A DNA stretch of 64,000 nucleotides from Candidatus Binatia bacterium (GTDB taxonomy: Bacteria; Verrucomicrobiota; Verrucomicrobiia; Limisphaerales; UBA8199), in contig DATMQA010000088.1 in assembly GCA_035566895.1 (NCBI GenBank), forward strand, positions 1 through 64,000. The letters are read 5' to 3'. Under the pieces are notes generated by a model. The model saw only the letters and a list, made by a program, of their open reading frames with translations, was not told the DNA's origin and did not search any database. Shown here one piece after another: positions 10,977 through 55,554 of this stretch; position 1 is the stretch's first letter, and every line of letters starts with the position of its first letter. Both the position numbers and the translations under genes were made by a program.

Positions 10977-11426
10977 TCACGGGTTCATCAGCCGGAAAAA
11001 CCATTTGCCCGCTGGTTGAGTGAGGGTCAGATAATTCGTTCCGTTGCTGTTGGTGACGCCGCTGCTGGCCGACCAGCCGGCGGCTGCGGTAACGCTGCTG
11101 TTCTGCTGCAAGCTCCAGCTCGCAACGGCTTGCCAGTAGACCGTCACCGAATTGGTGCCTCGGCTGATGTAAAGGAGCGGCGCGCCCGGCGTTTGCACCG
11201 GCGCAATCAACGCCCAAAATCCGCCCGTGACTGAATAAGAGCCACCGGTCATCGGCCCGCCGGCATCGTGTTGGCCGATGGTGCCGCTGACCGCGTACGT
11301 TCCGCCGGTGCTGTTCATGCCACCGCCACCGGAGACTTTGTACCAGTCAATGCTGTAGCTTTGGGCGGTCGCGCGAAGGCACAGGGTAAAAGGCAAAAGG
11401 CACAAAAGAATGAGTTTGTATTTCAT
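10977..11426 (-). CDS. Small secreted protein ('SIDWYKVSGGGG...' N-domain plus shared C-terminal '...WFFRLMNP' domain)
   Basis: Signal peptide MKYKLILLCLLPFTLCLRATAQS. 12-bp gap to the upstream gene. Confidence 0.75.
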   Translation of the reverse strand: MKYKLILLCLLPFTLCLRATAQSYSIDWYKVSGGGGMNSTGGTYAVSGTIGQHDAGGPMTGGSYSVTGGFWALIAPVQTPGAPLLYISRGTNSVTVYWQAVASWSLQQNSSVTAAAGWSASSGVTNSNGTNYLTLTQPAGKWFFRLMNP

Positions 11427-11438
11427 GGTTATGCTCCT

Positions 11439-13811
11439 TCAATTTGACTTTTGGTTGCGAATGATGTTTTCCAGTGATACGAGTCGTTGTTGCAACGCCG
11501 CGTTTTCCGCGTCGCGGCGTTTCAATTCCTCCCTGAGCCTGGTGTTTTCGGAATCCACTTTCTGGTTCAACCCCTGAATCGCCGCCAGCGCTACACCTTC
11601 CTCGTCCACCGTGGCAATATGTTTATCGTCCAGGCCGACATTGAACGCCGCATAAAAGTCCTGCGCCATCGGGCCGAGATGGGGTGTGGCCAAATCGTTG
11701 GTATAATGCCAGCGCGTGATGGGCATCGCGGCCACCCGCTCCAAAACGGTCTTCGTATCCACCGGCTCGAACCCCGCCTTGACGTTCCGATCGCTGCTGC
11801 TGACAAAGGTGCCGCGCACCGTCAGGCCGGCACTGTCCAATAACAGCATGGTTGCGCCGATGGACCCGCTGTAGATGACAAAATTCGTCGTGGTCGCCCC
11901 CACATCCCATCGTTTGTTTGCATTCCCTCCAACCGTAAAGCGCAGTCGCGAAAAATCCGACGCGGTTTGCTGATCCAATTGCGCCTGTGGGAAGGAGTTG
12001 CCGCCGCTGCTGGTGACGTGCAGTTGCGCCTGCGGGTGATTCGTACCAATGCCGACACCGCCGCCGGCGTAAACCAGGAACTGGTTGGGTGCGCTCGAAC
12101 TGAAAGGGTACACTTCGCCATCCGACCAGATAAAGCAATCGTCATTCAGAGCCTGAGCGCCATTACCTGCCGCAAAGGAAGCAGCACCTTTGGCAACATT
12201 ACCCGCGCCGCCTGGCACCACCGCAGAAGCGCCGCTGGCAGTGTTGCCGTAGCCGCCGCCCACGGTCCCCTGTTGGCTGCTGGCGGTATTGTTATAGCCG
12301 CCGCTGACTGTCGAGTAATCCCCGCTGGCGGTGTTTTGGGTGCCCCCTCCCACCGTCGAGTAGCCGTAGCCCGTTCCGCTGGCCGTGTTGTAACTCCCCC
12401 CGCCCACGGTCGAGAAGCCAGAGGTTGGGATGCTGGAAGTGTTGTAGTAGCCTCCGGCCACGGTAGAGGCTTGGCCAATGGCGGCGTTGTGGTATCCACC
12501 GGCGACAGTTGCCATCACACCACTAGCGGTATTTTGAGCGCCACCGCCCACCGTGGTGTCATTGAGCGAGGCGGTGTTGCCAAACCCGCCCGCTACCGTC
12601 GCGTAGCTGAAACTGGCGGTGTTGCCGTAGCCTCCTCCCACCGTGGTGAAGCCGTAATGCCCCCCGCTGGCGGTGTTGCCAAGGCCGCCGCTAACCACAG
12701 ATGCATCGCCGCTGGCTACGTTCCCGGCGAAAATCCCGGCGCCATAACCGCCACCCCCGACGAACGAGCCGGAGCCGGTCGCAGAGTTCGAAACCCCGCC
12801 GCCCACCGTCGAATAACCGAGCAATGGCGTCGTGTAATAGTTATCCGAGCCGCTGGCAAGGTTGCCGGAGCCGCCGCCCACCGTCCCAAAGTCCGCGACT
12901 ACACTGTTGGTGCCGGGGCTGCCGAAATAATTGTTGGCACCGCCGCCGGCAATAGTCGCGCCATACACGCCCGCACCTACGGAATTGACCGCGGCACCAC
13001 CCGCCACGTTGACGATGCCTGAGTGGTTTGCATCATTGGCCGTCGGCTCCAGCCGCAAGGCACGGGTGCCGTTGATGTGCAATTCCAACGGTTGATAGTC
13101 CGTCGTGCCGACAAAGTTGCCATTGGTTGCGCTGGTGCCGGCGTTGCCGGCAATTTGCCAGGCGTTGCCCAACGCCGCCGCCGGCACGGTTCCGGTCGTC
13201 AATTGCGACGCGTTCAAGCCGGTCAACCCGCCGCCGTTGCCATTGAAACTGTCGCCTGGATTGGTCAGGTTGACCGCGCCGCCGTAGGTGCCACTGAGGC
13301 TCGCCGCCGGAATGGTCCCGCTTAGTCCCGCCGCGCTGGCGCCTTCGGCGAAAATGGCATAAGGCGTCGGCGTCAACTGCTGGCGCGGACTCAAGACCTT
13401 GAACGCTCCGACGTTGTTGGTCCGGACGGCGATTTGCAGCCAATAGGTGGTGCCGTCAAACACGCCGCCATAATCCAGCGTGATGGTAAACAGGCCGTTG
13501 CTCACCGCCACGGCCGCATTGGTAATCGGCCCGGCAAAAACAGTGCTGCCGGTACTAGTGAGATAAAGGCCAACGCGAATGTCGTAAAGGCCGTTGGCGG
13601 GATTGCCGCCGTCGTTTAGCTCGCCTTGATAGGTGAACGCAGTGCCCTGGGCTCGGACGGTTGAGGGTTGGCCAAAGAGCGTTGAGATTAACGCCACCGC
13701 CAGGACCGCACAGCGGGGAACGCCGCCGAACCGCCCGCCAGAGCTGCAACATTGCGCACCACCGCCGATTTTACCTGAATTTTGCATGGGAGTAACAACC
13801 ATGGGTTTCAT
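11439..13811 (-). CDS. Large secreted fibre/adhesin-like protein: conserved 'MKPMVVTPMQNSGKIGGGAQCCSSG' leader plus signal-like h-region, ~20 YadA-head-like Gly-rich repeats, C-terminal intramolecular chaperone (S74-like) domain
   Basis: Start placed at the internal ATG 13811. Repeats 'STVGGGxxNTASG'. C-terminus 'SDRNVKAGFEPVD...HLGPMAQDFYAAFNVGLDDKHIATVDEEGVALAAIQGLNQKV' followed by a coiled coil. Confidence 0.8.
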   Translation of the reverse strand: MKPMVVTPMQNSGKIGGGAQCCSSGGRFGGVPRCAVLAVALISTLFGQPSTVRAQGTAFTYQGELNDGGNPANGLYDIRVGLYLTSTGSTVFAGPITNAAVAVSNGLFTITLDYGGVFDGTTYWLQIAVRTNNVGAFKVLSPRQQLTPTPYAIFAEGASAAGLSGTIPAASLSGTYGGAVNLTNPGDSFNGNGGGLTGLNASQLTTGTVPAAALGNAWQIAGNAGTSATNGNFVGTTDYQPLELHINGTRALRLEPTANDANHSGIVNVAGGAAVNSVGAGVYGATIAGGGANNYFGSPGTNSVVADFGTVGGGSGNLASGSDNYYTTPLLGYSTVGGGVSNSATGSGSFVGGGGYGAGIFAGNVASGDASVVSGGLGNTASGGHYGFTTVGGGYGNTASFSYATVAGGFGNTASLNDTTVGGGAQNTASGVMATVAGGYHNAAIGQASTVAGGYYNTSSIPTSGFSTVGGGSYNTASGTGYGYSTVGGGTQNTASGDYSTVSGGYNNTASSQQGTVGGGYGNTASGASAVVPGGAGNVAKGAASFAAGNGAQALNDDCFIWSDGEVYPFSSSAPNQFLVYAGGGVGIGTNHPQAQLHVTSSGGNSFPQAQLDQQTASDFSRLRFTVGGNANKRWDVGATTTNFVIYSGSIGATMLLLDSAGLTVRGTFVSSSDRNVKAGFEPVDTKTVLERVAAMPITRWHYTNDLATPHLGPMAQDFYAAFNVGLDDKHIATVDEEGVALAAIQGLNQKVDSENTRLREELKRRDAENAALQQRLVSLENIIRNQKSN

Positions 13812-19057: not shown

Positions 19058-20227
19058 TCAAGCGGCGGTGGGCGGGACGGTCCAGAGGGGCGCGCCGACG
19101 TCCTTTTCGGCTGCGGGGCCGGAGATATAAGGGGACACAAGTCCCGGCAACACTTGAACGTCGAAGATTTCCTCGACCCCTGCGCGGAACTCCAGATGGG
19201 CGGCGATAGCTCCGGTCCGCAAATCGACCACCCAAAGCCCGCAGCGCAGCTTGTCGCGCTCGGCCACGATGGGGACTCCGTCGAGCGTCGGCCGGGCCTT
19301 TGAGAGACCGACAAAGGCATACCCGCCATGAAGGGCCAGGCCGCGTGCAACGCCCGGCACGGCGACCACAGTGGTGACCTGGCCGGTCCGGGGGTCGGCC
19401 ACGGCCAAGTGACCCTGGCCGGTGTGGAGAAAAAAGATTTGGTTGCCTTCCACCCGTGGGGAGTGAGGGAGGGACAGCCCGCGGGCCACCACGCGGCCGC
19501 TGGGGACCTCGATGAGACAGCCGCCGTTGCCCTTGACAGCGCGCCAGCCGGAGGGCGCGTCGGTTTCCGCCAGGGCGGTGACGTAGCGGGGTTGCCCGTT
19601 GATCACGGCTAGACCGTTCAGATGGCAGCGGTCTTCGGGCCGCAGGGCGGATATGAACGGCGGCCGCCAGCGCGGCGCGAAACTGTAATGTGGATGCAGC
19701 GCGGACAGGCAGGAGAAGAGCGTATTGACGAGCCAGAACTCGCTGCTCCCGGCGCGCGCCCCGCCCCCAGCCCCCTCGACCCAGGCTGCTTCGTGCGCCT
19801 GGATGTCATCGGTGAAGTGGGAGGTGCGCGCCAGAAAACAGGCGTCGTGTTGTCCCGGGTGCTGCAACTTGGCGGCGACATCCGGCACGTTCCGCAGGAA
19901 CCACACTTCCTTGCGCGTGCAGACGGCGATGGTTCCGTGCCTGACGGCGATGCCCATGGCGCGCTCGAATTGGTTAAACGTCAGCGTGAGCCGGCCTTTC
20001 CGGGCCGACACAACCACCAGGTGGCCGGTCTGGTAGGTGGAGATCAGGACCGACAGACGCCGTTGCGTGAGGAGCGCGGGGAGACTGTCCGAGTGGGAAC
20101 AGCGGATGTCGCGATATTCCTGGACCGGTTCAGAAGCTTGAGCGGTCACGGGCGCTCCTGGTTGAATCGGCCAACTCGTTCCGGTGCTGAATTGAACTAA
20201 ACACTCCCCGGGGTCGGGTGTTTCCAT
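19058..20227 (-). CDS. Conserved hypothetical protein (TIGR03032-like, predicted beta-propeller fold)
   Basis: 389-aa ORF with strong GC3 bias. Family assignment is by recollection only. Confidence 0.55.
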   Translation of the reverse strand: METPDPGECLVQFSTGTSWPIQPGAPVTAQASEPVQEYRDIRCSHSDSLPALLTQRRLSVLISTYQTGHLVVVSARKGRLTLTFNQFERAMGIAVRHGTIAVCTRKEVWFLRNVPDVAAKLQHPGQHDACFLARTSHFTDDIQAHEAAWVEGAGGGARAGSSEFWLVNTLFSCLSALHPHYSFAPRWRPPFISALRPEDRCHLNGLAVINGQPRYVTALAETDAPSGWRAVKGNGGCLIEVPSGRVVARGLSLPHSPRVEGNQIFFLHTGQGHLAVADPRTGQVTTVVAVPGVARGLALHGGYAFVGLSKARPTLDGVPIVAERDKLRCGLWVVDLRTGAIAAHLEFRAGVEEIFDVQVLPGLVSPYISGPAAEKDVGAPLWTVPPTAA

Positions 20228-21549
20228 GGCGTGCGATACGTGCGTGCCAGCCGGCCATTGGCTTCGTCGTCGCCCGCAATTTTTCCCGCCTCAGCGTCCC
20301 AGCGCAAACTGCGGCCTAACTCCATGGAAACGTTGGCGAGGATGCAGCAAGCGGTTGAGATATAGCCTTCTTCAATATCCGCAACCGGGCGTTGGCCGGA
20401 TTTGCGGGCCTGGACAAAGTTCAAGAGGTTCCGCCGGTTTGCCGGCGCGGCAAACAACTCGGTTTCTTTGTGCTCGACGTCTTCCGGATATTTCTCGCGT
20501 TCCTCCACCGCTTTGACCCTCTCGGGCGAGCCGCCATCGTTTGGAATGTAGTCGTACGACCAGACACTGAGCTTCAAAGTGCCTTTCTCCCCGTAGTAGG
20601 TCACCCCCCAGGGGTAGTCCGGTTCCGGGTTCCGGCCCCAATTGCGCTGGTTCCAAACGACCTGGACATCGCCATAATCGAAAAGCGCCGTCTGCGTGTC
20701 GTGCACGTTCAGGCTCGAGTGGCGGTCCCGCATCAAAATGCCGCCGGTCGAAGAAATGCTCCTGGGCCAGCGGAGCTCGAGGAACATTCGCGTCACATCG
20801 AACAGGTGAACGCCCAGGTCACCGGTTTGGCCGTTGCTGAATTCGCGCGCATCACGCCAACTGCGTGGATGGATGCCCGGGTTGTAATCACGCCACGTCG
20901 CCGGCCCGACATACATCTCCCAATCCAGCGTGGAGGGAGGCGCGGTCGGCGCGGGGAAACTTTTTCTGCCGCCGTAATAGCTGTGGATATCCACATAGGC
21001 GATCTTTCCGAGTTTGCCGCTCTTGATGTAGCGATCTCGCGCTTCAAGAATATGGGGAGTGCTGCGCCGTTCCAATCCCACCTGGACTGTGCGGTTATAT
21101 TTTCGCGCCGCGGCAACCATCGCCTGGCCTTCGACGACGTCATAGCTGATCGGCTTTTGGACATAGACATCCGCTCCCGCCTTGACGGCATCGATCATCG
21201 GCAGGCAATGCCAGTGGTCGGGCGTGCCGATCAGCACGATTTCCGGCCGCTGGTCCGCCAGCAATTTGCGGTAGTCGCCAAACACCGGTGGCTTCTTTTT
21301 GGATGGTTGGCGCCTGGCGACCAACTCCGCCGCGGCTTCCACCATTTTACGGTCCACATCGCACAGGCCGACGACTTCGATTGGCGCAACCTGGATTAGA
21401 TGAAACAGATCGGTCTTTCCATACCACCCACAGCCGATCAGTGCGACGCGCAAAGGCTTTTCCTCCTCGGCGGCGAAGAGGCTTGTTTTCGCCGCCGCCA
21501 AAGCCAGCGCCCCGGCTCCGCTTGTTTTCAAGAAACTCCGTCTGGTCAT
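20197..21549 (-). CDS. Gfo/Idh/MocA family oxidoreductase with TAT signal
   Basis: MTRRSFLKTSGAGALALAAA twin-arginine signal. Rossmann motif 'LRVALIGCGWYG'. Confidence 0.9.
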   Translation of the reverse strand: MTRRSFLKTSGAGALALAAAKTSLFAAEEEKPLRVALIGCGWYGKTDLFHLIQVAPIEVVGLCDVDRKMVEAAAELVARRQPSKKKPPVFGDYRKLLADQRPEIVLIGTPDHWHCLPMIDAVKAGADVYVQKPISYDVVEGQAMVAAARKYNRTVQVGLERRSTPHILEARDRYIKSGKLGKIAYVDIHSYYGGRKSFPAPTAPPSTLDWEMYVGPATWRDYNPGIHPRSWRDAREFSNGQTGDLGVHLFDVTRMFLELRWPRSISSTGGILMRDRHSSLNVHDTQTALFDYGDVQVVWNQRNWGRNPEPDYPWGVTYYGEKGTLKLSVWSYDYIPNDGGSPERVKAVEEREKYPEDVEHKETELFAAPANRRNLLNFVQARKSGQRPVADIEEGYISTACCILANVSMELGRSLRWDAEAGKIAGDDEANGRLARTYRTPWKHPTPGSV

Positions 21550-21699
21550 GTGTCAGCTCTTTCGTTTTGTTTTCGCAATGTTCGCTCCGAGACGGTCTCC
21601 CGGCAACGCCAAATGCGCATCGGGCGAGAAGGGATTCGGGTGTCACGTGGTCAGAGTGAAATGGCATGGAAACATCTCCCGAAAAAAAATTTAGTGTTA

Positions 21700-22215
21700 A
21701 GAAATGTTAAGGAGTGTTAAGAAGTGCTAAGGCCGCGATAGCGGGATGGGGTGGACGGGGCGGCGGCGAGGAGCGGGAAGGTGGCACGGGGAGCTGGGCT
21801 TCATGTTTGCTTGTACGGTTTTCTGTTTTCCGGGCCGCTCGCTGTTGGCGACAGTGGCCTCTACTATGTATTGTGCGACAAAGGTTGTCTGACGGCGGAC
21901 ATGTTTGCTGGTACGAATTTCTGTTTTCGGGGCCGGCCGCAGTTGGCGACACTGCCCTCTACTATATATGGCGCGACGAAAGTAGTCTGACGGCGGACAT
22001 CGGAGCGCCAAGATTGTAGCAGCCGACGCCAGGAGGCTTTGATCTCTCGGCCAATGGACAAAGGATCAGAGCCTCCTGGCGTCTGGCTGCTACGGCAGGG
22101 GGTTAGTTGGCTTTTCCTTCCGGCAGGCGGAGCAGCGGACGAGTGGACTTGGTGAACGCGGAACCGCACCGGACCGAGGCGCGGCAAGGAGATGTGGGGC
22201 CGGTGTGGCGCAGGA
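21700..22215. repeat. Copy A of a ~0.5 kb segmental direct repeat (contains two ~100-bp tandem units at about 21795-22003 and an 80-nt hairpin at 22010-22095)
   Basis: Long blocks are near-identical to 23025-23693 (read by eye). Contains an internal tandem duplication of a ~100-bp unit. Confidence 0.8.
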
Positions 22216-22413
22216 GATCGAGGATCCGGAAGTGAAGATGAGTGTGTGGCGGCGCCGCCGAGCCTCCAAAATTGCCGGGGCCAGCAATGCGGCGGATCGA
22301 CGCGAGCTGCGGGAACACACCGATCTTCCCTTAACTGCGTTGGGCTCCGGCAGCGATTACGCGAGTTTTTTGGATTTCCTGGGCATCCCCTGCGTGAGCC
22401 TCGATTTCGCTGA

Positions 22414-23007
22414 CGAGAGCAACGATGCGGCAGCTCGTGGGCCACAGGTGATGAGTATGTCGGTGCCCTAGGCGACGGGAAGACCAACGGCTATACGAAC
22501 GCCTGGGAGATGGTCGTAGCCAGCGGTGTCACGGCGGTTGCGGCCGGGAGCCGCCATAGTCTGTTCCTCGAATCCGACGGCAGCCTCTGGGGCATGGGCG
22601 ACGGTACCACCACGGACCGGCTCACTCCGGAGCAGATTCTGTCGAGCGGCGTGGTCGCGGTCGCGGCCGGGCATGGGCACAGTCTTTTCCTCAAGTCTGA
22701 CGGCAGCCTTTGGGGGATGGGCGAAAACGGGTTCGGTCAGTTGGGCGACGGCACGTACACGAGCCGTCCGACACCGGTAACGATTGTCCCGCCGCCGCCG
22801 CCCACGATCACTAGCATTAGCCTGGCGGGGACGAATATGGTCATCGTGTGGCCGGCGAACCAGTGCGGTTTCACGTTGCAATGCGCCTCGAATCTGGAGC
22901 CGCAGGTAACTTGGAGCAACGTTTCCGCTGGAGTGGTCGTCAGCAACCAATACGTAGTGACCAATTCCATCTCCGTCCCGCGGATGTTCTATCGGCTGGC
23001 CGAATAG
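22414..23007 (+). pseudogene. RCC1-repeat (regulator of chromosome condensation-like) gene fragment with shared C-terminal '...RMFYRLAE' domain; no in-frame ATG before 22510
   Basis: Frame opens after the TGA at 22411. RCC1 blades 'YVGALGDG...SRHSLFLESDGSLWGMGDG...GHGHSLFLKSDGSLWGMGENGFGQLGDG'. The first ATG (22510) lies inside a repeat blade. Confidence 0.55.
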
Positions 23008-23024
23008 CTGGGAAAAAATTAGTG

Positions 23025-23693
23025 TCAAAAAAGCTTAGAAACCGCTAAAAAGGTTAAAGCTGATGGCGGCTTAATGGATGGGGGCGGCGGCGGGCAGAGC
23101 GGCGAGGCTGCGGCGAGGGAGTGTGGGTGCCCGGGGTGGTATGGAGGGTTGGGCTTTCATCTTTGCTGATACGAATTTCTATCTTCGGGGCTGGCCGCGG
23201 TTGGCGACACTGCCCTCTACTTTATATGGCGCGACGATAGTAGTCTGACGGCGGACAGGGCCGCCGGGATGATATTATCTGCCCAGACTGGAGCACGTTT
23301 TTTATCAGGCCGACGCGGTGGTGCATTGGGAGATGAGCGTTGCTCACCGCGATACCGGCTGGCTCACGCGGACGTTTCATTGCCCTTTTCGTGAGATATG
23401 GTGCACACGGGCGCGCGCTGCACGAAGAGCAAGGACCCGGCCGCATCAATGGTGCGGCGTCCGATCAAAAGGACCATCGAAGCGCCAAGATCGTAGCAGC
23501 CGACGCCAGGAGGCTCTGATCATTTGTTCGATTGACCGAGAGATCAGAGCCTCCTGGCGTCGGCTGCGACGGGAGGGGGGTGGTTGGCTTTTCCTTCCGG
23601 CAGACGGAGCAGGAGGCGAGTGGACCTGGTGAACGCGGAACCGGACCGGGCCGAGGTGCGGCAAGGAGATGTGGGGCCGGGGTGGTTACCGGA
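23025..23693. repeat. Copy B of the segmental direct repeat (one ~100-bp unit, a ~210-bp unique insert, and a perfect-stem hairpin at 23493-23570); it ends exactly at the ggt stop codon
   Basis: Matches 21700-22215. The hairpin GTAGCAGCCGACGCCAGGAGGCTCTGATC-N20-GATCAGAGCCTCCTGGCGTCGGCTGCGAC has a 23-bp perfect core. Confidence 0.8.
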
Positions 23694-25418
23694 TTACCAG
23701 GCGAGCGCAGCACCGTTCGCGCGCGGATCGGCTGCGCTGAGAAAGCCGTGGCCGTCGGGCGCGAGGCCGACTGCTTGCGTCGCCCCAAACCATTTGATCG
23801 GGCGCACGATGTGACCGCGTGTCGCGAGGTCGAACTGGACCGCGGGATTCAGTGCCTCCTCGACCTTCAGTTCGTCCGGCCTCCATTGGTGATGAAATTT
23901 CGGCTGGTTGATCGCGGTCTGAGCATCCATACCCAAATCCAAAACATTGACGATGCTCAACAGCGTTTGACTGATGATGGTAGGGCCGCCCGCCGCACCG
24001 AGCGCCAGGATGGGTTGCCGACCCTTCAGGACGATGGTCGGACTCATGCTGGAGAGCGGACGTTTCCCAGGCGCGATCGCGTTAGCTTCACCGCCAACCA
24101 GGCCAAAGTAATTGGGGACCCCCGGTTGAGCGGAGAAGTCATCCATCTGGTTGTTCATGACGACGCCCGTGCCGGGAATGACGACCTTGGACCCAAAATG
24201 AGTGTTGATGGTGGTGGTCAGCGCTACCCAAGTTCCTCCCGCATCCACGGTTGACAGATGTGTAGTGTGTTTTGAAAACAGGTCGATTTCGGAATCGGAG
24301 GGTGTGCCGTGGCCGTGCACCGGCGTCGCGTGCTTCAAATCGATTCTCGCGGCGCGAGCGCGGGCGTAATCCTTGCTCATGAGACCACGCGGCACTTTGA
24401 CAAAATCCGGATCGCCCAGCCAAAAGGCGCGGTCGGCAAACACCAGCTTCATCGATTCGGCGATGAAGTGGTCTCGGTCGGCCTCCGTGAAGTTCGAAAT
24501 ATTGTGACTTTCCAGCATGTTCAGCGCTTCAAGGATATGGACCCCGCCGGAACTGGGCGGCGGAAACGAAATCACCGTGTAGCCACGATACACGGTGGAG
24601 ACCGGCGCACGCAGCACCGGACGATAACCCTTGAGGTCCGCAGTGGTAACCAGGCCATGATTCTCCTTCATCCACTTTTCCACCGCTTGAGCAAACGGCC
24701 CATCGTAAAACCATTCCAGGCCGTGTTCCGCGATAGCGCGATAGGTTCGCGCGAGGTCGGTTTGCCGCAGGATTTCGCCTTCTCCCCATGGAGTGCCATC
24801 GGGCTTGACAAAAACGGCTCGGGCAGCGGGATACTTCGCCAGGTCGGCGGCGTTTTCTCGAAGGTGCGTGGCGTATTGCTTGTCGATCCGAAAACCCGTC
24901 TCGGCCATTTCAGCGGCAGCCAGAAGATGTTCCTTGAGCGGGATTTTGCCCCAGGATTTCACGGCCAGAGCATACGCGGCCAAGGCGCCAGGCGTAGCGA
25001 TGGCCAACGCACCAGTTTCGCTAAGGCCCGGAATAACTTTGCGTTTGTGCAGCAGGCTTCGTTTGCTCAGATACATGTCGTGCGTGGCGGCAGCGGGGGA
25101 GGTCTCGCGACCATCAACGCAGACGATCTCGCCGCTGGCAAGGCGGACGAGAATGAAACAGCCGCCGCCGATACCTGAATTGTATCCGTTAACGACACCG
25201 AGCGTCAGGGCGGCGGCAATTGCGGCATCGACCGCGTTGCCCCCCTTCTTCATGGCGTCAATGCCGGCCTGGCTGGCAATGCCGTCCACCGTAGCCACCG
25301 CGCCGTGAGGACCTACGGCTGGTTGAGCAGGGGCGCAGAAGGAAAACAAGACTACCAGGACCGCGAGCTCGCGCAGATGTCTGACCGTGCGGGTCATATG
25401 GATTCCATTTGTTTTCAT
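23694..25418 (-). CDS. ggt: Gamma-glutamyltranspeptidase (secreted)
   Basis: The GGT family is conserved throughout (GGGCFILVRL, ...TTHLSTVDAGGTWVALTTTINTHFGS autocatalytic Thr region). Signal peptide present. Alternative start at 25397. Confidence 0.9.
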   Translation of the reverse strand: MKTNGIHMTRTVRHLRELAVLVVLFSFCAPAQPAVGPHGAVATVDGIASQAGIDAMKKGGNAVDAAIAAALTLGVVNGYNSGIGGGCFILVRLASGEIVCVDGRETSPAAATHDMYLSKRSLLHKRKVIPGLSETGALAIATPGALAAYALAVKSWGKIPLKEHLLAAAEMAETGFRIDKQYATHLRENAADLAKYPAARAVFVKPDGTPWGEGEILRQTDLARTYRAIAEHGLEWFYDGPFAQAVEKWMKENHGLVTTADLKGYRPVLRAPVSTVYRGYTVISFPPPSSGGVHILEALNMLESHNISNFTEADRDHFIAESMKLVFADRAFWLGDPDFVKVPRGLMSKDYARARAARIDLKHATPVHGHGTPSDSEIDLFSKHTTHLSTVDAGGTWVALTTTINTHFGSKVVIPGTGVVMNNQMDDFSAQPGVPNYFGLVGGEANAIAPGKRPLSSMSPTIVLKGRQPILALGAAGGPTIISQTLLSIVNVLDLGMDAQTAINQPKFHHQWRPDELKVEEALNPAVQFDLATRGHIVRPIKWFGATQAVGLAPDGHGFLSAADPRANGAALAW

Positions 25419-25620
25419 TCCGGTCCTCTCATTCGAGGAGTTGGGTCTCCTAATCGCAGGCGAGATAAAGCGTTGCGGTTCTCGGACATCAACGACTCCT
25501 ATCAGTTCAGCCGGCCCCAGAAAAGGAATTTACCGGTGTGCCGGTTTCGTAGGTATGGGAGTTCTTCCCGCCCGCGATTCTCCATCCCGTGAGCTCGTTT
25601 CATCGTGGCTTCAGTTCACC

Positions 25621-25697
25621 TTGGTCCCAATGGCGCGTCCGGCAGGACTTGAACCTGCAACCTTCTGATCCGAAGTCAGAAGCTCTATCCAATTGAG
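25621..25697 (-). tRNA. tRNA-Arg (anticodon TCG)
   Basis: Reverse complement GCGTCCGTAGCTCAATTGGATAGAGCTTCTGACTTCGGATCAGAAGGTTGCAGGTTCAAGTCCTGCCGGACGCGCCA folds as a cloverleaf with anticodon loop CTTCGGA. CCA is encoded. Confidence 0.9.
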
Positions 25698-26178
25698 CTA
25701 CGGACGCACGATTGTCGTTGAATGCTACGCTATCCTGACCAAGCACGAAGTCAACGCTGCATCGTTTCGGAGGCGTGACCAGTGACAAGTGGCGAGTGAG
25801 AGGCTTCTCGCTCGCGCGGTGCTTCTCCCTAAGTGCCTCGCGCCGGGAAGGTTGTACCTGGCTTTCTTGACAACCCGGCGAGTTATGGGATTGGTGGTAC
25901 AGCAGTTGAAGCAGCCTAAGTTGGCTTTCCTTCCTGAAGGCCAATGCGGGGGACCCAAAGTCCTCGAACAGGTGTTTGGGGAAGGGGCGAAAGGCCGCGG
26001 GTAACCGCGGTTAAGGTCACTTCCTGGACCGAGCCCGTCAGCTAACCTCGCCGGCAATGGGAAGGGCGATCCTCTAGGGTCCCGCTCGGGCGGGTTCCCA
26101 CGTTCACCCAGTCAAGAAAGCGCGCTGCGCCTTGCGCGGCGATACCGCAGCGGTGTGCAGCCACATCGGAGAATCGGT

Positions 26179-28026
26179 ATGAATACAATGATTCTATTTG
26201 GAACACTCGGGCCCGTGGAACTCGGGCTGGCGGTAATCGTGATGCTGGGTTTGCTATCGATCGGACCGCTGGTGCTCGGCGCGGTATTAATCCGCGAGCG
26301 CCAGGTCGGGATCGTGGTGAAGAAGTTTGGCGGCCGGGGGTTACCGCCGGGGCGATTGGTTGCCCTGGCCGGCGAATCCGGCTACCAGGCCGACACCCTC
26401 GCGCCGGGCCTGCACTTCGGATATTTCCGGTGGCAATACCGGATTCTGAAGATGCCGGTGACGGTCGTGTCGCAAGGCGAGATCGCGCTGGTGGTGGCCG
26501 CTGATGGGGCTTCGATTCCATCGGAACGCATCCTGGGCAAAGTGGTCGATTGCGACAACTTCCAGGACGCGCGGAAGTTCCTGGTCAACGGCGGCGAGAA
26601 AGGGCGCCAATTGGGCGTCCTCACCGCGGGCACGTACCGGATCAACCGGGCGTTGTTCACGGTGATCACCTCGGACACGGCGCAGGACCACGGCATGCTG
26701 GGCTCGCAACTGCGGTTGCACCAGATCGAGCCGGACATGGTGGGGATTGTGACCGCCATGGACGGCCAGCCGATTGAGGCCGGCGAAATCGCAGGGCCGG
26801 TGATTGCCGGCCACCAAAACTTCCAGAACACGCAAGCGTTTCTGGACGGCGGCGGCCGGCGCGGATTGCAGGACCAAATCCTGTTGTCCGGCACCTGGAA
26901 CCTCAATCCGTGGTTCGTGCAGGTCGAGCAGGTGCCGATGGTGCAGATCCCGATCGGCTACGTCGGCGTCGTCATCTCGTATGTGGGCAAAGCCCACGTC
27001 GATGTGAGCGGCATCGAGTTCAAGCACGGCGACCTGGTCGAGACCGGCCACAAAGGTGTGTGGGTGACCCCGCTTTACCCGGGGAAGCATCCGATCAACA
27101 CCCGCGTGATGAAAGTCGAGCTGGTACCGACGACCAACATCGTGCTCAACTGGGCGGCCCGCACCGAGACGCATAAGTACGACGAGAAACTCTCGTCCAT
27201 CACGGTGCGGTCGAAGGACGGGTTCGCCTTCAGCCTGGACGTGTCGCAGATCATCCACGTCGGCGCGTTGGACGCGCCGAAGGTGATCTCGCGCGTCGGC
27301 TCGATGCAAAACCTGGTCGATCACGTCTTGCAGCCGATTGTGGGAAATTACTTCCGCAATTCGGCGCAGGACTACACGGTGCTCGACTTCCTCGGGGCGC
27401 GCAGCCAGCGCCAGGTGGAAGCGGCCGAGCACATCCGGGCGGCGTTGTCCGCCTATGATGTGCAGGCCATCGACACGCTGATCGGCGACATCAATCCGCC
27501 GGCGCAACTGATGCAAACGCAGACGGACCGGAAAATCGCCGAAGAACAGCGCAAAACCTACGAGGTACAGGAAGCGGCGCAGGTGCAGCGCCAGCAACTC
27601 GTGCGACAGACCTCGCTGGCGGATATCCAGCATGAGGTGGTCGGCGCCGAGCAAGGCGTGAGCATCGCCGAACTGCACGCGAACGCGCAGGTGAAACAGG
27701 CGACCGGTGAAGCCGAGTCAGTGCGCTTACGGGCGCACGGCGAGGCGGAGGCCATTCGGGCCACCGGCCAGGCCAAGGCCGAGGCCTACCGGGCCGGCGT
27801 TGAAGCGCTGGGCCCGCAGGCCTACACGACGATGCAGCTCATGCAAATCGTCGGCGACCGACAGGTACGGATCGTGCCGGACGTTGCCGTCAACGGCGCC
27901 AACGCGAGTCCTGGTCTCGTGGACGGGCTGCTCGGACTGATGGTCCGCAGCCAGGCCAACGGGGAAGGGCGCAGCGCGAAGGCCGAAGTGCCAGGCGCCG
28001 AAGCGGTGCTGCCGCGCGCGAACTAA
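26179..28026 (+). CDS. Flotillin / SPFH (band-7) domain membrane protein (YqiK-like)
   Basis: N-terminal TM helix, SPFH core, and a long Ala/Glu/Gln-rich coiled coil (EAEAIRATGQAKAEAYRAGVEALG). Confidence 0.85.
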   Translation: MNTMILFGTLGPVELGLAVIVMLGLLSIGPLVLGAVLIRERQVGIVVKKFGGRGLPPGRLVALAGESGYQADTLAPGLHFGYFRWQYRILKMPVTVVSQGEIALVVAADGASIPSERILGKVVDCDNFQDARKFLVNGGEKGRQLGVLTAGTYRINRALFTVITSDTAQDHGMLGSQLRLHQIEPDMVGIVTAMDGQPIEAGEIAGPVIAGHQNFQNTQAFLDGGGRRGLQDQILLSGTWNLNPWFVQVEQVPMVQIPIGYVGVVISYVGKAHVDVSGIEFKHGDLVETGHKGVWVTPLYPGKHPINTRVMKVELVPTTNIVLNWAARTETHKYDEKLSSITVRSKDGFAFSLDVSQIIHVGALDAPKVISRVGSMQNLVDHVLQPIVGNYFRNSAQDYTVLDFLGARSQRQVEAAEHIRAALSAYDVQAIDTLIGDINPPAQLMQTQTDRKIAEEQRKTYEVQEAAQVQRQQLVRQTSLADIQHEVVGAEQGVSIAELHANAQVKQATGEAESVRLRAHGEAEAIRATGQAKAEAYRAGVEALGPQAYTTMQLMQIVGDRQVRIVPDVAVNGANASPGLVDGLLGLMVRSQANGEGRSAKAEVPGAEAVLPRAN

Positions 28027-45661: not shown

Positions 45662-46471
45662 TCAAAAATTCCTCGCCGCGAGCACTTCTCTAGCCGGCTT
45701 CCGGTCCCCCGTGCAACTAATCCGCCTCGGTCCGTCCAAAAAACGCAGTTTGAAGCCGAGCTTCTCGTAAAGCGTCAGAATCCGCTCCGTGGCCTGGTTG
45801 GACAAGATCACCGGCCCTTTATGTCGCGCCAGCCATTCCGCCGCCCGCACCTGGTCCTCCCAACCGAATGGTTCCTTCGCGTACCGAGTGAATTCCACGT
45901 CGAACGGCGGGTCGGCATAAATAAAATCGTCCGCTTCCAACCGCGTGTTCTCAAAATCGACACTCGTGAACTCCCAATTCGAAAATACCTGTTGGTAAGC
46001 GCTGAAATCCCGAATGTAGTTGATGCTCTTGTAACGCCCAAAAGGCACATTGAATTCGCCGCTGGCGTTGAACCGGCACAGACCGTTGAAACAGGTCCGA
46101 TTCAGGTAATAAAACAGCGCTGCCGCCTCCGCGCAATCAGCCTTGCCTTCGCGCAGCAGTTCATTGAACCGCTTTCGATGCGCATAATAGAGCTCCCGAT
46201 CATTCTCCATCCAGAGCGTGATCTGCATTCCTCGCTTCAGCCACCCGTAGAAGTGCATAACGTGCGGATTAGCATCATTGAGCAAGGCGCGTTCGGGGAC
46301 CAGGCCGAGCGTGATCGCCAATGCGCCGCAAAACGGCTCAACTAGGCGGCGCTCCGAGAATGGCTGCCAGAGCGGTATAAGCTGTGGCACCAGCCAGCGC
46401 TTTCCGCCCGCCCATTTCAGAGGCGGCGAAAGCGGGACGGCCAACGGCAATGGGGTTTCGGTTTCGGACAC
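45662..46471 (-). CDS. DNA N6-adenine methyltransferase, D12 class (Dam-like), apparently stand-alone
   Basis: 'LKWAGGKRWL' motif, 'EPFCGALAI' (FxGxG-like motif I), 'YADPPFDVEF' (DPPF catalytic motif IV). Confidence 0.85.
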   Translation of the reverse strand: MSETETPLPLAVPLSPPLKWAGGKRWLVPQLIPLWQPFSERRLVEPFCGALAITLGLVPERALLNDANPHVMHFYGWLKRGMQITLWMENDRELYYAHRKRFNELLREGKADCAEAAALFYYLNRTCFNGLCRFNASGEFNVPFGRYKSINYIRDFSAYQQVFSNWEFTSVDFENTRLEADDFIYADPPFDVEFTRYAKEPFGWEDQVRAAEWLARHKGPVILSNQATERILTLYEKLGFKLRFLDGPRRISCTGDRKPAREVLAARNF

Positions 46472-47015: not shown

Positions 47016-47278
47016 TTTCTCAAACTAGCGGAAACGACAAGGCGGTGCAATGACCAGAATCGACACGATGGAATACCGTGTTAAAATTGCTCTAATCAAT
47101 ACTTAAAGATGCCAGAAAATTTGAGCCTCCTTGCGTCGGCTGCTACGATGGGAATGATTCCTTGCGCGCTCTTAGACCTGGGGCGTGCATGAGAACCGCG
47201 TGGATGATGCGTGAAACCACTCGAATAATTTCACGCATCACGCATCACTCATCACCACCCCATCACGCATCAGTACCG

Positions 47279-48430
47279 TCACTTGAGCCGCTCTTCCATC
47301 CACGCCAGCGTCTTGGCCCACATCTCGGGCGTATAAACGTGACCCAAACCAGGGTAAATGATGCTCTGAAAATCACTCTCCTTCCCATAGATCCCATAGA
47401 CCGGGCGCACTGCTGTTTCAATCGCGTGAATCCCATCCTCCGGCGAACCGTTGTCCTGGTCGCCAGTTTGGAACAACACCGGGCGGGGTGCCGCCAAGGC
47501 GACGACGGCTTCGGTATCGAAATGATTCAACAGGCCCGGTACGAAATAGTAGATGCCATGCGCCTTGAGCTCCTCGTGCTGAATCAGGTTCTGGTAGCGT
47601 GTCACGCAGGCAATAGCGACACCGGTCTTGAGCCGGTCGTCCAGCGCCATCAGCCACCAGGTGCGCGTCGCCCCCATGCTGATGCCGGTAACCCCGAGAC
47701 GGGTTGCATCCACTTCCGGGCGGGATGCCAGGTAATCCAGCCCCATCAAATCATCCCGCAAAATCATCCCCCACAGCGTGCGGCCGACCCACAAGTTAAA
47801 CTTGCTGGCGGTCAGCTCGCCGTTGCTCCCTTTCTCTTCCGGACCGCCGGGGCCTCGACCATTGCGCTCGCCGAAGCAATAGGCATCAATCCCCAACACC
47901 ACAAATCCGCGTTTGGCTAATGCGGGCCCGGGAGGTTCTGGCGTATGCCGTGCCTGGAACAATTCCTCTTTGCCAATCTCATACTCGCCGCCATGCCAGT
48001 GGCAATACAGGATCGCCGGCGCTTTTCCGGAAAGGTTTTCGGGCAACAGGAGATAGCCCGCCACCGTCGCACCCGCGCCGTTATCGAATTGGAATTTCTC
48101 GACCTTGCAGCCGTCCCGAGTTTCCCGGGAAAGGATCGCGATCTCAGGTAATTTGGGTCGCGGTGGAAGTTTGCCGAGCAACTGCCAAAGCTGCGCCCGC
48201 ACTTCTTTTCGCTGGCGTTCCCAGGCGCTTTTGGAACCGGGCGCCTTAAAATCTGGCGCCAGCGCGGAACTTGCGAGCCACCGGGCGGCGTCGCTTTGAT
48301 TGGTCTGAGCCATCGCGGCACTCAAAGTCAGGTTAACTGCCGCCCAGAGGGCTGCGAGGCTAAAGCGGAAGGTGCAAGGTCGAAGATGCAAGATGGTCCG
48401 AACGGATGTGTTCCATCTCCCATCTTCCAT
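47279..48430 (-). CDS. Secreted alpha/beta-hydrolase (acetyl-xylan-esterase / dienelactone-hydrolase-like)
   Basis: Start at ATG 48430 with signal-like segment. 'GISMGA' nucleophile elbow. 'LYCHWHGG' motif. Confidence 0.8.
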   Translation of the reverse strand: MEDGRWNTSVRTILHLRPCTFRFSLAALWAAVNLTLSAAMAQTNQSDAARWLASSALAPDFKAPGSKSAWERQRKEVRAQLWQLLGKLPPRPKLPEIAILSRETRDGCKVEKFQFDNGAGATVAGYLLLPENLSGKAPAILYCHWHGGEYEIGKEELFQARHTPEPPGPALAKRGFVVLGIDAYCFGERNGRGPGGPEEKGSNGELTASKFNLWVGRTLWGMILRDDLMGLDYLASRPEVDATRLGVTGISMGATRTWWLMALDDRLKTGVAIACVTRYQNLIQHEELKAHGIYYFVPGLLNHFDTEAVVALAAPRPVLFQTGDQDNGSPEDGIHAIETAVRPVYGIYGKESDFQSIIYPGLGHVYTPEMWAKTLAWMEERLK

Positions 48431-48440
48431 CTTCTTTCTC

Positions 48441-49022
48441 CTACTTGACGCCGCCTTTCTGGATTTCAGCAGAGATGGCCTTGACATCGTCCGCAATGGC
48501 GACTGCCTTAAGGCGGTTCAATCCGTTCTCCTGAAAGATCGCCTGCACATCCGCAAAGATGCCATCGAGTTTCGCCTGCGGATACTTGCCCGGATTAAGC
48601 ACCGCATCGAGTTCCTGCACCAAACGCGCGCGGCTTGTCGCCGGCAACGGCTTTTCAGCGAATGCAGCGCTGAGGTCGTCGGCCAGCTTGGCGGCGGCAG
48701 CCGGGGAAGGCTTCGCCCCCTGCGCGGCGGCGAGCAATTCATTCGCAAGCTGCTGCTTCTGCGCTTCGGTTGCCGGCGAACCAGTTCCAATAACGGCCAG
48801 GTCGGTCTGGAATTTCGTAAGCGCGGGCGAGAGCCTTGGCGGTGGTGGAGTCGTGGCTCCCGGAGTGGGAGTGCCGGGTTGCGTCGGCGGAGCCACACCC
48901 TGCCGCACGTTGTTTTGGTTGCTCAATTCCTTGGCCCGCTGCTTGATGATGGCGTCCTGGCCGGCAACCGGGCCGGCCGCCACCAGTACGACGGCGCCGA
49001 TGAATCCAAACGTTGCGTTCAT
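48441..49022 (-). CDS. Secreted hypothetical protein (Pro/Ala-rich linker; helical)
   Basis: Start at ATG 49022 (MNATFGFIGAVVLVAAGPVAG). Lies downstream of the Mla-like operon on the same strand. Confidence 0.6.
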   Translation of the reverse strand: MNATFGFIGAVVLVAAGPVAGQDAIIKQRAKELSNQNNVRQGVAPPTQPGTPTPGATTPPPPRLSPALTKFQTDLAVIGTGSPATEAQKQQLANELLAAAQGAKPSPAAAAKLADDLSAAFAEKPLPATSRARLVQELDAVLNPGKYPQAKLDGIFADVQAIFQENGLNRLKAVAIADDVKAISAEIQKGGVK

Positions 49023-55175: not shown

Positions 55176-55554
55176 TCAGGGCCAGAGCCGCTGGTCGATT
55201 CGATGCCCGGTTCGCTCGATTCTGCGTCGAAAAGTCGCTTAGAGCGTGTCTTAAAATTGGGGCCGCGTTGTTCTGCCCGGAAAACCGCTCAACTTTCCGC
55301 CTCCTCACGTCGGCGGCTACAATTTCCAAACACGCTCTTAAACACGCTTTGCGCTTCAAAAAACACGCTCTCTCGCTCTCGTGACGTTCGTGCGCGTGAG
55401 ACTTGATAGCTTTATGATAGACTTTCGCGCATCTTTTCAGAACAGAACAAGAGCGACTAACAGAGCATAACGGCGCACTACGCAAAAAGATCGCAATGCG
55501 AGCATAGCTCAGTAAATACGAGTGAAAAACGCTCTTCTCTCAGCAGTTTTGGAG

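Follow-up and report, generated by a model that had tools for sequence, protein, structure and literature searches.

A strain-variable intergenic island in a Limisphaerales genome, probably built from dispersed repeats and dead gene fragments

The island and its flanking genes

We analyzed a repeat-rich intergenic island on contig DATMQA010000088.1, part of a metagenome-assembled genome (MAG) of the Verrucomicrobiota. We use "window" for the whole stretch of DNA that was analyzed, 64,000 nucleotides (nt). The island occupies the gap of 2.1 kb that separates the start of a Gfo/Idh/MocA oxidoreductase gene with a twin-arginine translocation (TAT) signal from the stop of ggt, the gamma-glutamyltransferase gene; both genes were identified with Pfam. 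An initial annotation described a single direct repeat of about 0.5 kb, present as a left copy (A) and a right copy (B) around a start-less RCC1 gene fragment. The island is instead composed of 2.5 copies of a repeat family that we call family 1, two inverted doublets resembling repetitive extragenic palindromic (REP) sequences of the GTAG type or REPINs, a local tail of ~114 nt, and two gene fragments. These features and the flanking genes are as follows.

20197-21549, minus strand: Gfo/Idh/MocA oxidoreductase with TAT signal (Pfam)
21642-21680, plus strand: conserved piece found before some family-1 copies (GTCACGTGGTCAGAGTGAAATGGCATGG...), aligning with copies at loci L017, L023 and L025
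21681-21901, plus strand: family-1 element A, delimited by alignment to copies at other loci
21682-21689: A-run of element A
21693-21732: four 10-nt motifs of element A, AGTGTTAAGn, subfamily 1
21732-21744: small hairpin of element A, GCCGCGATAGCGG, with the G-rich tract next to it
21802-21901: unit U1, inside element A
21900-21999, plus strand: unit U2, a 5'-truncated family-1 unit that abuts the end of U1 and opens the locally duplicated block
22016-22094, no strand assigned: hairpin A, a GTAG-tagged REP-like inverted doublet, GTAG termini outermost, 19-nt spacer
22095-22208, plus strand: tail A, local sequence duplicated along with the hairpin
22205-22471, plus strand: open reading frame (ORF) resembling NAALADase/M28, an internal fragment and pseudogene (JGI name, structure-chain alignment)
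22414-23007, plus strand: RCC1 fragment, pseudogene (Pfam RCC1 and RCC1_2)
23013-23257, plus strand: family-1 element B (nhmmer match 23003-23290, E = 8.5e-62)
23158-23257: unit U3, inside element B
23258-23474, no strand assigned: 217-nt insert, in copy B only, with edges GGACA and GGACC (MAFFT)
23492-23571, no strand assigned: hairpin B, the same REP-like doublet with a 30-bp stem, 97% complementary over 30 nt
23572-23685, plus strand: tail B, ending 8 nt short of the ggt stop codon
23694-25418, minus strand: ggt, stop codon at 23694-23696 (Pfam)

The island was compared with the window by BLAST, a repeat search and MAFFT alignment, and the three agree on the block structure. BLAST aligned 23475-23685 with 21998-22208 at 87.3% identity over 212 nt (E = 5.6e-69), a block that comprises hairpin and tail, and 23158-23257 with 21900-21999 at 92% over 100 nt (E = 2e-36), a block that corresponds to the unit. 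In the repeat search tail A was 90% identical to 23562-23685. Near-identity between the copies is limited to these two blocks. The initial annotation had also counted an A/T-rich leader and a G-rich tract among the near-identical blocks, but these are alike at ~65-77% only; on the other hand, the similarity is not confined to the hairpin, since the 100-nt unit and the tail match too. The copies also differ in unit number, with two in tandem in copy A (U1 and U2) and one in copy B (U3). The similarity ends at 23685, and copy B therefore does not run exactly to the ggt stop codon as had been read.

Two dispersed repeat families and a chimeric copy

Family 1 was traced by scanning JGI metagenomes with the unit core, GTTGGCGACANTGNCCTCTACT. 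The scan matched the window itself (on contig L016) and 10 other loci, 8 of them distinct, over which 13 further family-1 copies are spread. At the outside loci the homologous stretch corresponds to window positions 21681-21901, that is, leader, G-rich tract and unit, at 74-87% identity; element A is 83-87% identical to full-length copies at L017, L023 and L025 and 76% identical to those at L020/L026. None of the 10 outside loci has a hairpin or tail alongside the family-1 copy (at L020 a hairpin lies 3.5 kb off). Because the outside homology runs from leader to unit and includes neither hairpin nor tail, family 1 is a dispersed element of ~220-260 nt.

The layout of the element is kept across 11 full-length copies. 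It starts with an A-run of 6-8 bases, followed by 2-4 copies of a 10-nt motif that distinguishes two subfamilies (AGTGTTAAGn in one, GGTTAAAA.. or ACCGCTAAAA in the other), and then by a small hairpin, a G-rich tract, a T-rich stretch and the core. The core, ~68 nt long and nearly invariant, contains the motif GGCG(n)ACA three times and has a sharp end at ...GTCTGACGGCGGACA, while the flanks diverge. Loci L018 and L021 keep the ~68-nt core only, and L019 a diverged unit only. Element B follows the same plan, with an A-run, subfamily-2 10-mers (..AAAAAAGCTTAGAAACCGCTAAAAAGGTTAAAG), a decayed small hairpin, a longer G-rich tract and U3. The conserved piece at 21642-21680, where the nhmmer match to copy A begins (at 21642), sits upstream of the oxidoreductase start. 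All family-1 copies are intergenic, their orientation and distance to neighboring genes vary, and several face a convergent gene. A profile search of the window found family 1 at the three island copies only. Head-to-tail pairs occur at L025 (11719-12240, start-to-start ~300 nt) and at L017 (9950-10572, ~400 nt); the L025 pair has subfamily 2 before subfamily 1, and the order in the window is 1 (A) and then 2 (B).

Several candidate roles for family 1 were considered and rejected. A structured RNA, whether formed by the unit or by the whole element, is not supported by covariation, folding or Rfam: RNAalifold, run on 14 units, found 0 compensatory pairs and a consensus energy of -11 kcal/mol, folding relative to shuffled sequences gave z values of +0.44 and +0.28 on the two strands and thus no extra stability, and Rfam, run at the gathering threshold on the whole window and in E-value mode on 21500-23800, returned spurious miRNA-hairpin matches to the palindrome only. 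The sole compensatory change in the family is in the small 5-bp leader hairpin, which reads GCCGC-GATA-GCGGC in one subfamily and ACCGC-GGGA-GCGGT in the other. A small peptide encoded by the unit (ending in …LATVASTMYGATKVV before the stop) was rejected because conservation does not extend to the start codon, the reading frame changes between units and the variation has no codon phase; the variable columns of the family are evenly distributed over codon phases, with no coding signature. The sequence TGGCAC…GC in the G-rich tract, read by eye as a sigma-54 (-24/-12) promoter, has wrong and unconserved spacing. When the ends of the 11 full copies were compared, they showed neither terminal inverted repeats nor target-site duplications, the traits of a miniature inverted-repeat transposable element (MITE), and the A-run at the 5' end bears no relation to the 3' end, ...GGCGGACA. 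Scans of IMG/VR viral contigs with the tail, the unit core and the hairpin arm gave 0 matches each.

The long hairpin belongs to a second, unrelated family. A scan of one genome per GTDB species with its arm, GATCAGAGCCTCCTGGCGTC, located it in five further Verrucomicrobiota/Limisphaerales MAGs, at 10 loci in all and at no more than four in any one MAG. A census of arms that tolerated mismatches gave 0 matches in shuffled sequences. At those 10 loci, compared as 8-kb stretches, BLAST homology covers the ~80-nt hairpin alone and never the unit or the tail. Nearly all arms open with GTAG (GTAGCAGCCGACG..., GTAGGAGCC..., GTAGCCGCC...), four being degenerate (GTCG, GTTG, CTAG and GCAG), and GTAG sits at the outer ends of the doublets. 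Doublets are present in the window (two) and at L006, L008, L010, L011, L013, L020 and L027, and those at L007 and L009 are truncated where the contig stops. Solo arms were found at L006, L012, L014 and L015 and at two further positions in the window:

47124-47146, minus strand: solo REP-like arm, one mismatch to the arm consensus
55298-55320, minus strand: solo REP-like arm

Two minus-strand genes flank the first of these, one for a Dam-family methyltransferase (45662-46471) and one that is hydrolase-like (47279-48496). Loci with the exact arm number 3-4 per MAG in two MAGs, 4-5 arms lie within the window, and most are intergenic. Within the arm, the main variant has a palindrome of 4-5 bp (AGCC-N10-GGCT, read by eye), and a variant arm at L006 has one of 7 bp (CGCCGAC-GTCA-GTCGGCG).

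In these sequence features the long hairpin appears REP/REPIN-like and matches the GTAG-REP superfamily. GTAG-REPs have been reported in the PVC superphylum, including Verrucomicrobia, with stems of 5-13 bp and loops of 2-20 nt, and they occur as HH dimers, as singletons and as clusters "reiterated in tandem along with flanking DNA" (Di Nocera et al. 2013, PMC3733652). REPINs are REP doublets that form hairpins (Bertels & Rainey 2011, PMC3116915). The arms have a practical side as well. At L006, L008, L020 and other loci, long spurious ORFs begin with the translated arm, in recurring strings such as LLTSAAT, LLASAAT and RRLTSAAT, and hairpin arms are likely to give rise to false "hypothetical proteins" and wrong starts when MAGs are annotated.

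Each of the two repeat families is thus found independently of the other at further loci and in further genomes, and the supposed 0.5-kb repeat is a juxtaposition of both with the tail, for which no match was found in any other fetched locus or in viral contigs. Copy A is itself composite. In a matrix of unit identities, U1 is closest to outside copies (L017b 94%, L017a 91%, L025a 90%) and is only 82% identical to U2 and 77% to U3, whereas U2 and U3 are mutual nearest neighbors at 89%. The leader 10-mers of copy A are of subfamily 1 and those of copy B of subfamily 2. Since U1 is closest to outside copies and the leaders belong to different subfamilies, leader and U1 of copy A are of independent origin: they form a family-1 element in its own right and not a duplicate of copy B. 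The true local duplication pairs U2, hairpin and tail (21900-22208) with U3, insert, hairpin and tail (23158-23685).

The duplicated blocks differ in two further ways. The 217-nt insert has no match in the fetched loci, and its ORFs have no Pfam match; its GGACA and GGACC edges are compatible with a deletion or insertion at microhomology. The hairpin spacers of A and B match at 16 of 20 positions when one is reverse-complemented and at 10 of 20 when they are compared directly, and both flanks are collinear. This inversion of ~20 nt spans a 30-bp palindrome and may flip-flop in the population.

Dead gene fragments and strain comparison

The sequence between the copies consists of two unrelated dead gene fragments fused to each other. 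The first, the ORF at 22205-22471, was overlooked in the initial annotation; JGI names it N-acetylated-alpha-linked acidic dipeptidase (NAALADase). It has no Pfam match, but its residues 43-77 align with residues 507-541 of the 743-residue NAALADase-like chain 4twe_A (E = 0.04), a position which indicates an internal piece of the enzyme. The second carries about 2.5 RCC1 blades and a FYRL-type C-terminal domain that ends in FYRLAE. As noted earlier for this ORF, the frame opens directly after a stop (TGA, 22411-22413) and has no ATG until 22510, inside a blade. Among 5.8 billion proteins, the best full-coverage homologues of the RCC1 fragment are 245-345 amino acids long and 38-56% identical, and no intact parent closer than about 56% over the full length was found. 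With ~2.5 blades and no start, an internal NAALADase piece and no close intact parent, the cargo is dead. Eight ORFs of the island have no Pfam match at E ≤ 0.1, hence no relic of a transposase or integrase. The finding has practical value for annotation: the "hypothetical protein" calls HWX20212.1 and HWX20213.1 are pseudogene fragments.

The C-terminal domain recurs in other proteins. Pfam gives RCC1-type matches only on the fragment and leaves its C-terminal part uncovered. A second ORF in the window (~10977-11440, minus) ends in a similar beta-rich domain (…GKWFFRLMNP before the stop), and FYRL/FFRL-type domains are common to unrelated secreted proteins in the window and at L025 (955 amino acids, ending in QTFYRLKAVP).

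Relatives show that the island varies between strains. The nearest relative of ggt (P0002, 94% amino acid identity) lies on contig L027, from another sample, where the ggt DNA is 95% identical to that of the window. Homology between L027 and the window stops exactly at the ggt stop codon. No hairpin or tail follows it, and a convergent short-chain dehydrogenase (SDR) gene, absent from the window, lies 13 nt downstream. Upstream of ggt, L027 carries a full GTAG hairpin doublet (L027 positions 1-82), 16 nt from the ggt start and 4 nt before the shared ribosome-binding region, and at the same site (25440-25460) the window retains no more than the outer tips of the two arms, TAGGAGAC-CCAA-CTCCTC. 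This vestige is either the scar of an excision or deletion or a small palindromic target site. The presence or absence of the hairpin family therefore differs between strains whose ggt is 95% identical. At the other end, relatives of the oxidoreductase with 84% DNA identity share sequence up to 21613 only and have other neighbors beyond. Homology thus stops at 21613 on one side and at the ggt stop on the other, so that, compared with the nearest relatives available, the island (about 21614-23693) varies between strains and has a breakpoint at each gene boundary. The comparison bears out a difference between close strains at this site. None of the related genomes fetched contains an intact RCC1 gene there. 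Relatives of ggt at 70% identity have no synteny with the window, and neither they nor the oxidoreductase relatives, among which none closer with long flanks was found, are informative apart from the breakpoints.

The oxidoreductase has at least 90% protein identity across 241 cluster members, and its neighborhood differs in each relative fetched, as seen at L002-L005 and on a 60-kb JGI contig. Synteny in this lineage is strikingly poor.

Two observations concern the wider window. A c-di-AMP riboswitch (RF00379) at 25903-26071 on the plus strand scores 57 bits, above the gathering score, and an SPFH/Band-7 gene (26155-28026) follows about 85 nt downstream of it; SPFH genes are not known to be among the usual targets of this riboswitch. 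The MAG is labelled "Candidatus Binatia bacterium" at NCBI, and all close relatives of ggt, the oxidoreductase and the repeats belong to the Verrucomicrobiae/Limisphaerales; judged by these affinities, the label is probably wrong.

Origin of the island and comparison with known systems

Several lines of evidence favor the interpretation of the island as a scar of repeat-driven rearrangement: its modules are separable, copy A is chimeric, the cargo is dead, breakpoints fall at both gene boundaries, and the hairpin turns over between strains. This reading is the best supported, and we consider it likely that the island is a strain-variable intergenic patchwork of small dispersed repeats and dead fragments, and not a transposon or cassette. 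The block of unit, hairpin and tail would have been duplicated when dispersed family-1 units underwent homologous recombination, unequal or ectopic, with each other, a step that can be likened to the reiteration of REP clusters with their flanking DNA (PMC3733652). Accompanying deletions would have truncated a NAALADase-like gene and an RCC1 gene and fused the fragments, recombination or template switching inside the palindrome could have flipped the hairpin spacer, and an event at the GGAC microhomology may have removed or added the 217-nt segment.

Four points weigh against this interpretation. The order of duplication, deletions and flip is deduced from one genome, and the comparison yielded neither an ancestral arrangement nor an intermediate one. 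From 22479 to 23313, the middle of the island is backed by long contigs alone. Repeat counts for the source genome, and likewise its tail census, cover the window only. Finally, a core that stays invariant while its flanks diverge implies a sequence-specific constraint at the DNA level, for example a binding protein or a recombinase, for which this explanation does not account.

The last point leads to a more specific proposal, that soil Limisphaerales contain in family 1 a non-autonomous DNA element of a class not described before, its parts being candidate sites for a recombinase, transposase or DNA-binding protein, and that together with the REP-like hairpins it drives the reshuffling of gene neighborhoods. 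The proposal would fit the conserved oxidoreductase and ggt, which stand in a different context in each relative fetched, but we regard it as tentative and, on balance, somewhat doubtful.

A functional explanation is less probable still. Family-1 copies might be promoters or small-RNA genes, with the A-tract acting as an UP-like element and the phased 10-mers as operators, and hairpin and tail might serve as a 3' stabilizer or terminator for ggt, the duplication being kept by selection. Constraint is indicated by the invariance of the 68-nt core and by the small hairpin, whose two forms, GCCGC..GCGGC and ACCGC..GCGGT, differ by a compensatory change, the 10-bp phasing suggests that a protein could bind on one face of the helix, and hairpin and tail lie directly 3' of ggt, on the ggt strand. 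However, a scan of the island found 0 sigma-70-like promoters, and terminator-like matches were no commoner than in shuffled sequences, none being canonical. The unit lacks any RNA fold signal or covariation, the elements keep no fixed orientation or distance to their neighbors (several face a convergent gene), and the ggt of L027, 95% identical, has neither hairpin nor tail downstream. We therefore consider such a module improbable.

Two mobile-element explanations are both very unlikely. One takes family-1 copies as relics of site-specific recombination sites, attL/attR-like hybrids (A-tract bend, 10-bp arm-type sites, core) left by lost integrative elements, so that the island would be a former integration hotspot. 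The layout invites a comparison with lambda-type attP anatomy, which is a likeness from general knowledge and not a test: the elements are ~240 bp long with asymmetric ends, direct 10-mers on one side and a sharply bounded core on the other, and tandem pairs occur at L017 and L025. Yet no integrase is near at the loci inspected by ORF listing, both flanks differ between copies so that no element interior is visible, the family is absent from IMG/VR viral contigs, and the 10-mers number 2 in some copies and up to 4 in others.

The other, equally unlikely, is the explanation given in the initial annotation, namely a decayed composite transposon or a recombination cassette, in which the 0.5-kb copies would be the ends of an RCC1-carrying mobile unit or the arms of a swap of secreted-protein cassettes. 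The architecture behind it, repeat, gene fragment and repeat with no transposase, is real: direct repeats flank gene fragments, copy B starts 6 nt after the RCC1 stop, and the site differs between strains. But each "end" combines two unrelated families, which are found apart elsewhere, the 5' half of copy A is not paralogous to copy B, the eight ORFs hold no transposase or integrase remnant, and the family-1 ends have neither terminal inverted repeats nor target duplications. The cargo, moreover, is made of two unrelated internal and C-terminal fragments with no close parent. The other FYRL-type genes, in the window and at L025, do not have the same 3' flank, and family-1 elements are not consistently next to such genes.

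Scarcely credible is a metagenome misassembly that collapsed or chimerized repeats. Assemblies do tend to break at repeats, a number of hairpin loci sit at the end of a contig, and both L001 and L016 terminate within the island. But independent short contigs from other samples span both outer junctions at 100% identity (L016 over 21346-22478 on the left, L001 over 23314-25687 on the right), the gene order is the same on a 144-kb JGI contig and a 68-kb NCBI MAG contig, and copies A and B diverge by 8-13%, which together exclude an assembly duplication.

Read as a rearrangement scar, the island as a whole is probably without function, though individual repeats may affect transcript ends or DNA topology, as has been proposed for REPs. 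REP-type hairpins and mosaic intergenic clusters are known kinds of sequence, and current concepts are unchanged by this case, since other bacteria are well known to have intergenic scars that are rich in repeats and vary between strains. The arm sequence common to several Limisphaerales species and family 1 are new. The island adds a case from soil Verrucomicrobia of GTAG-type REP doublets common to several species-level MAGs, and it provides the first description of a longer repeat family with a conserved core, previously undescribed and with no Rfam match. If the repeats are active or recombinogenic, they could explain the poor synteny around conserved genes and the breaks of MAG assemblies there.

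Among known systems, family 1 is comparable to ERIC/IRU sequences, Correia elements (CREE) and MITEs, which are likewise 0.2-0.3 kb long, non-coding, dispersed and intergenic, fall into subfamilies and lie in either orientation relative to genes. It differs from them in having no terminal inverted repeats, target-site duplication or stable fold, and in having an A-run, direct repeats phased at 10 bp, an invariant 3' core and an occasional tandem arrangement.

The defining partner of a REPIN is a RAYT, a Y1 HUH transposase (Pfam PF01797) that is single-copy and often flanked by REPs. The hairpin shares with GTAG-REPs and REPINs the 5' GTAG at the outer arm end, the inverted "HH dimer" with a spacer of ~20-27 nt that forms one long stem-loop, singletons beside doublets, what appear to be several copies per genome, mostly intergenic and near gene ends, variants between genomes, clusters with duplicated flanking DNA, and presence or absence in close strains. 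In the main variant the arm palindrome, read by eye as 4-5 bp with a 10-nt loop, seems to lie at or under the 5-13 bp reported for GTAG-REPs, one variant (L006) has a stem of 7 bp, and the arm sequence is common to at least five GTDB species-level MAGs, unlike many REPIN populations, which are lineage-specific. The island as a whole resembles two kinds of strain-variable intergenic cluster in which REP palindromes are interleaved with other repeats, namely enterobacterial BIMEs (bacterial interspersed mosaic elements) and the mosaic intergenic regions of Neisseria, the latter mentioned in PMC3733652. It differs from them in that its partner repeat is far longer (~220-260 nt, with a layout of its own), its REPs do not alternate regularly in orientation and its hairpins number two only.

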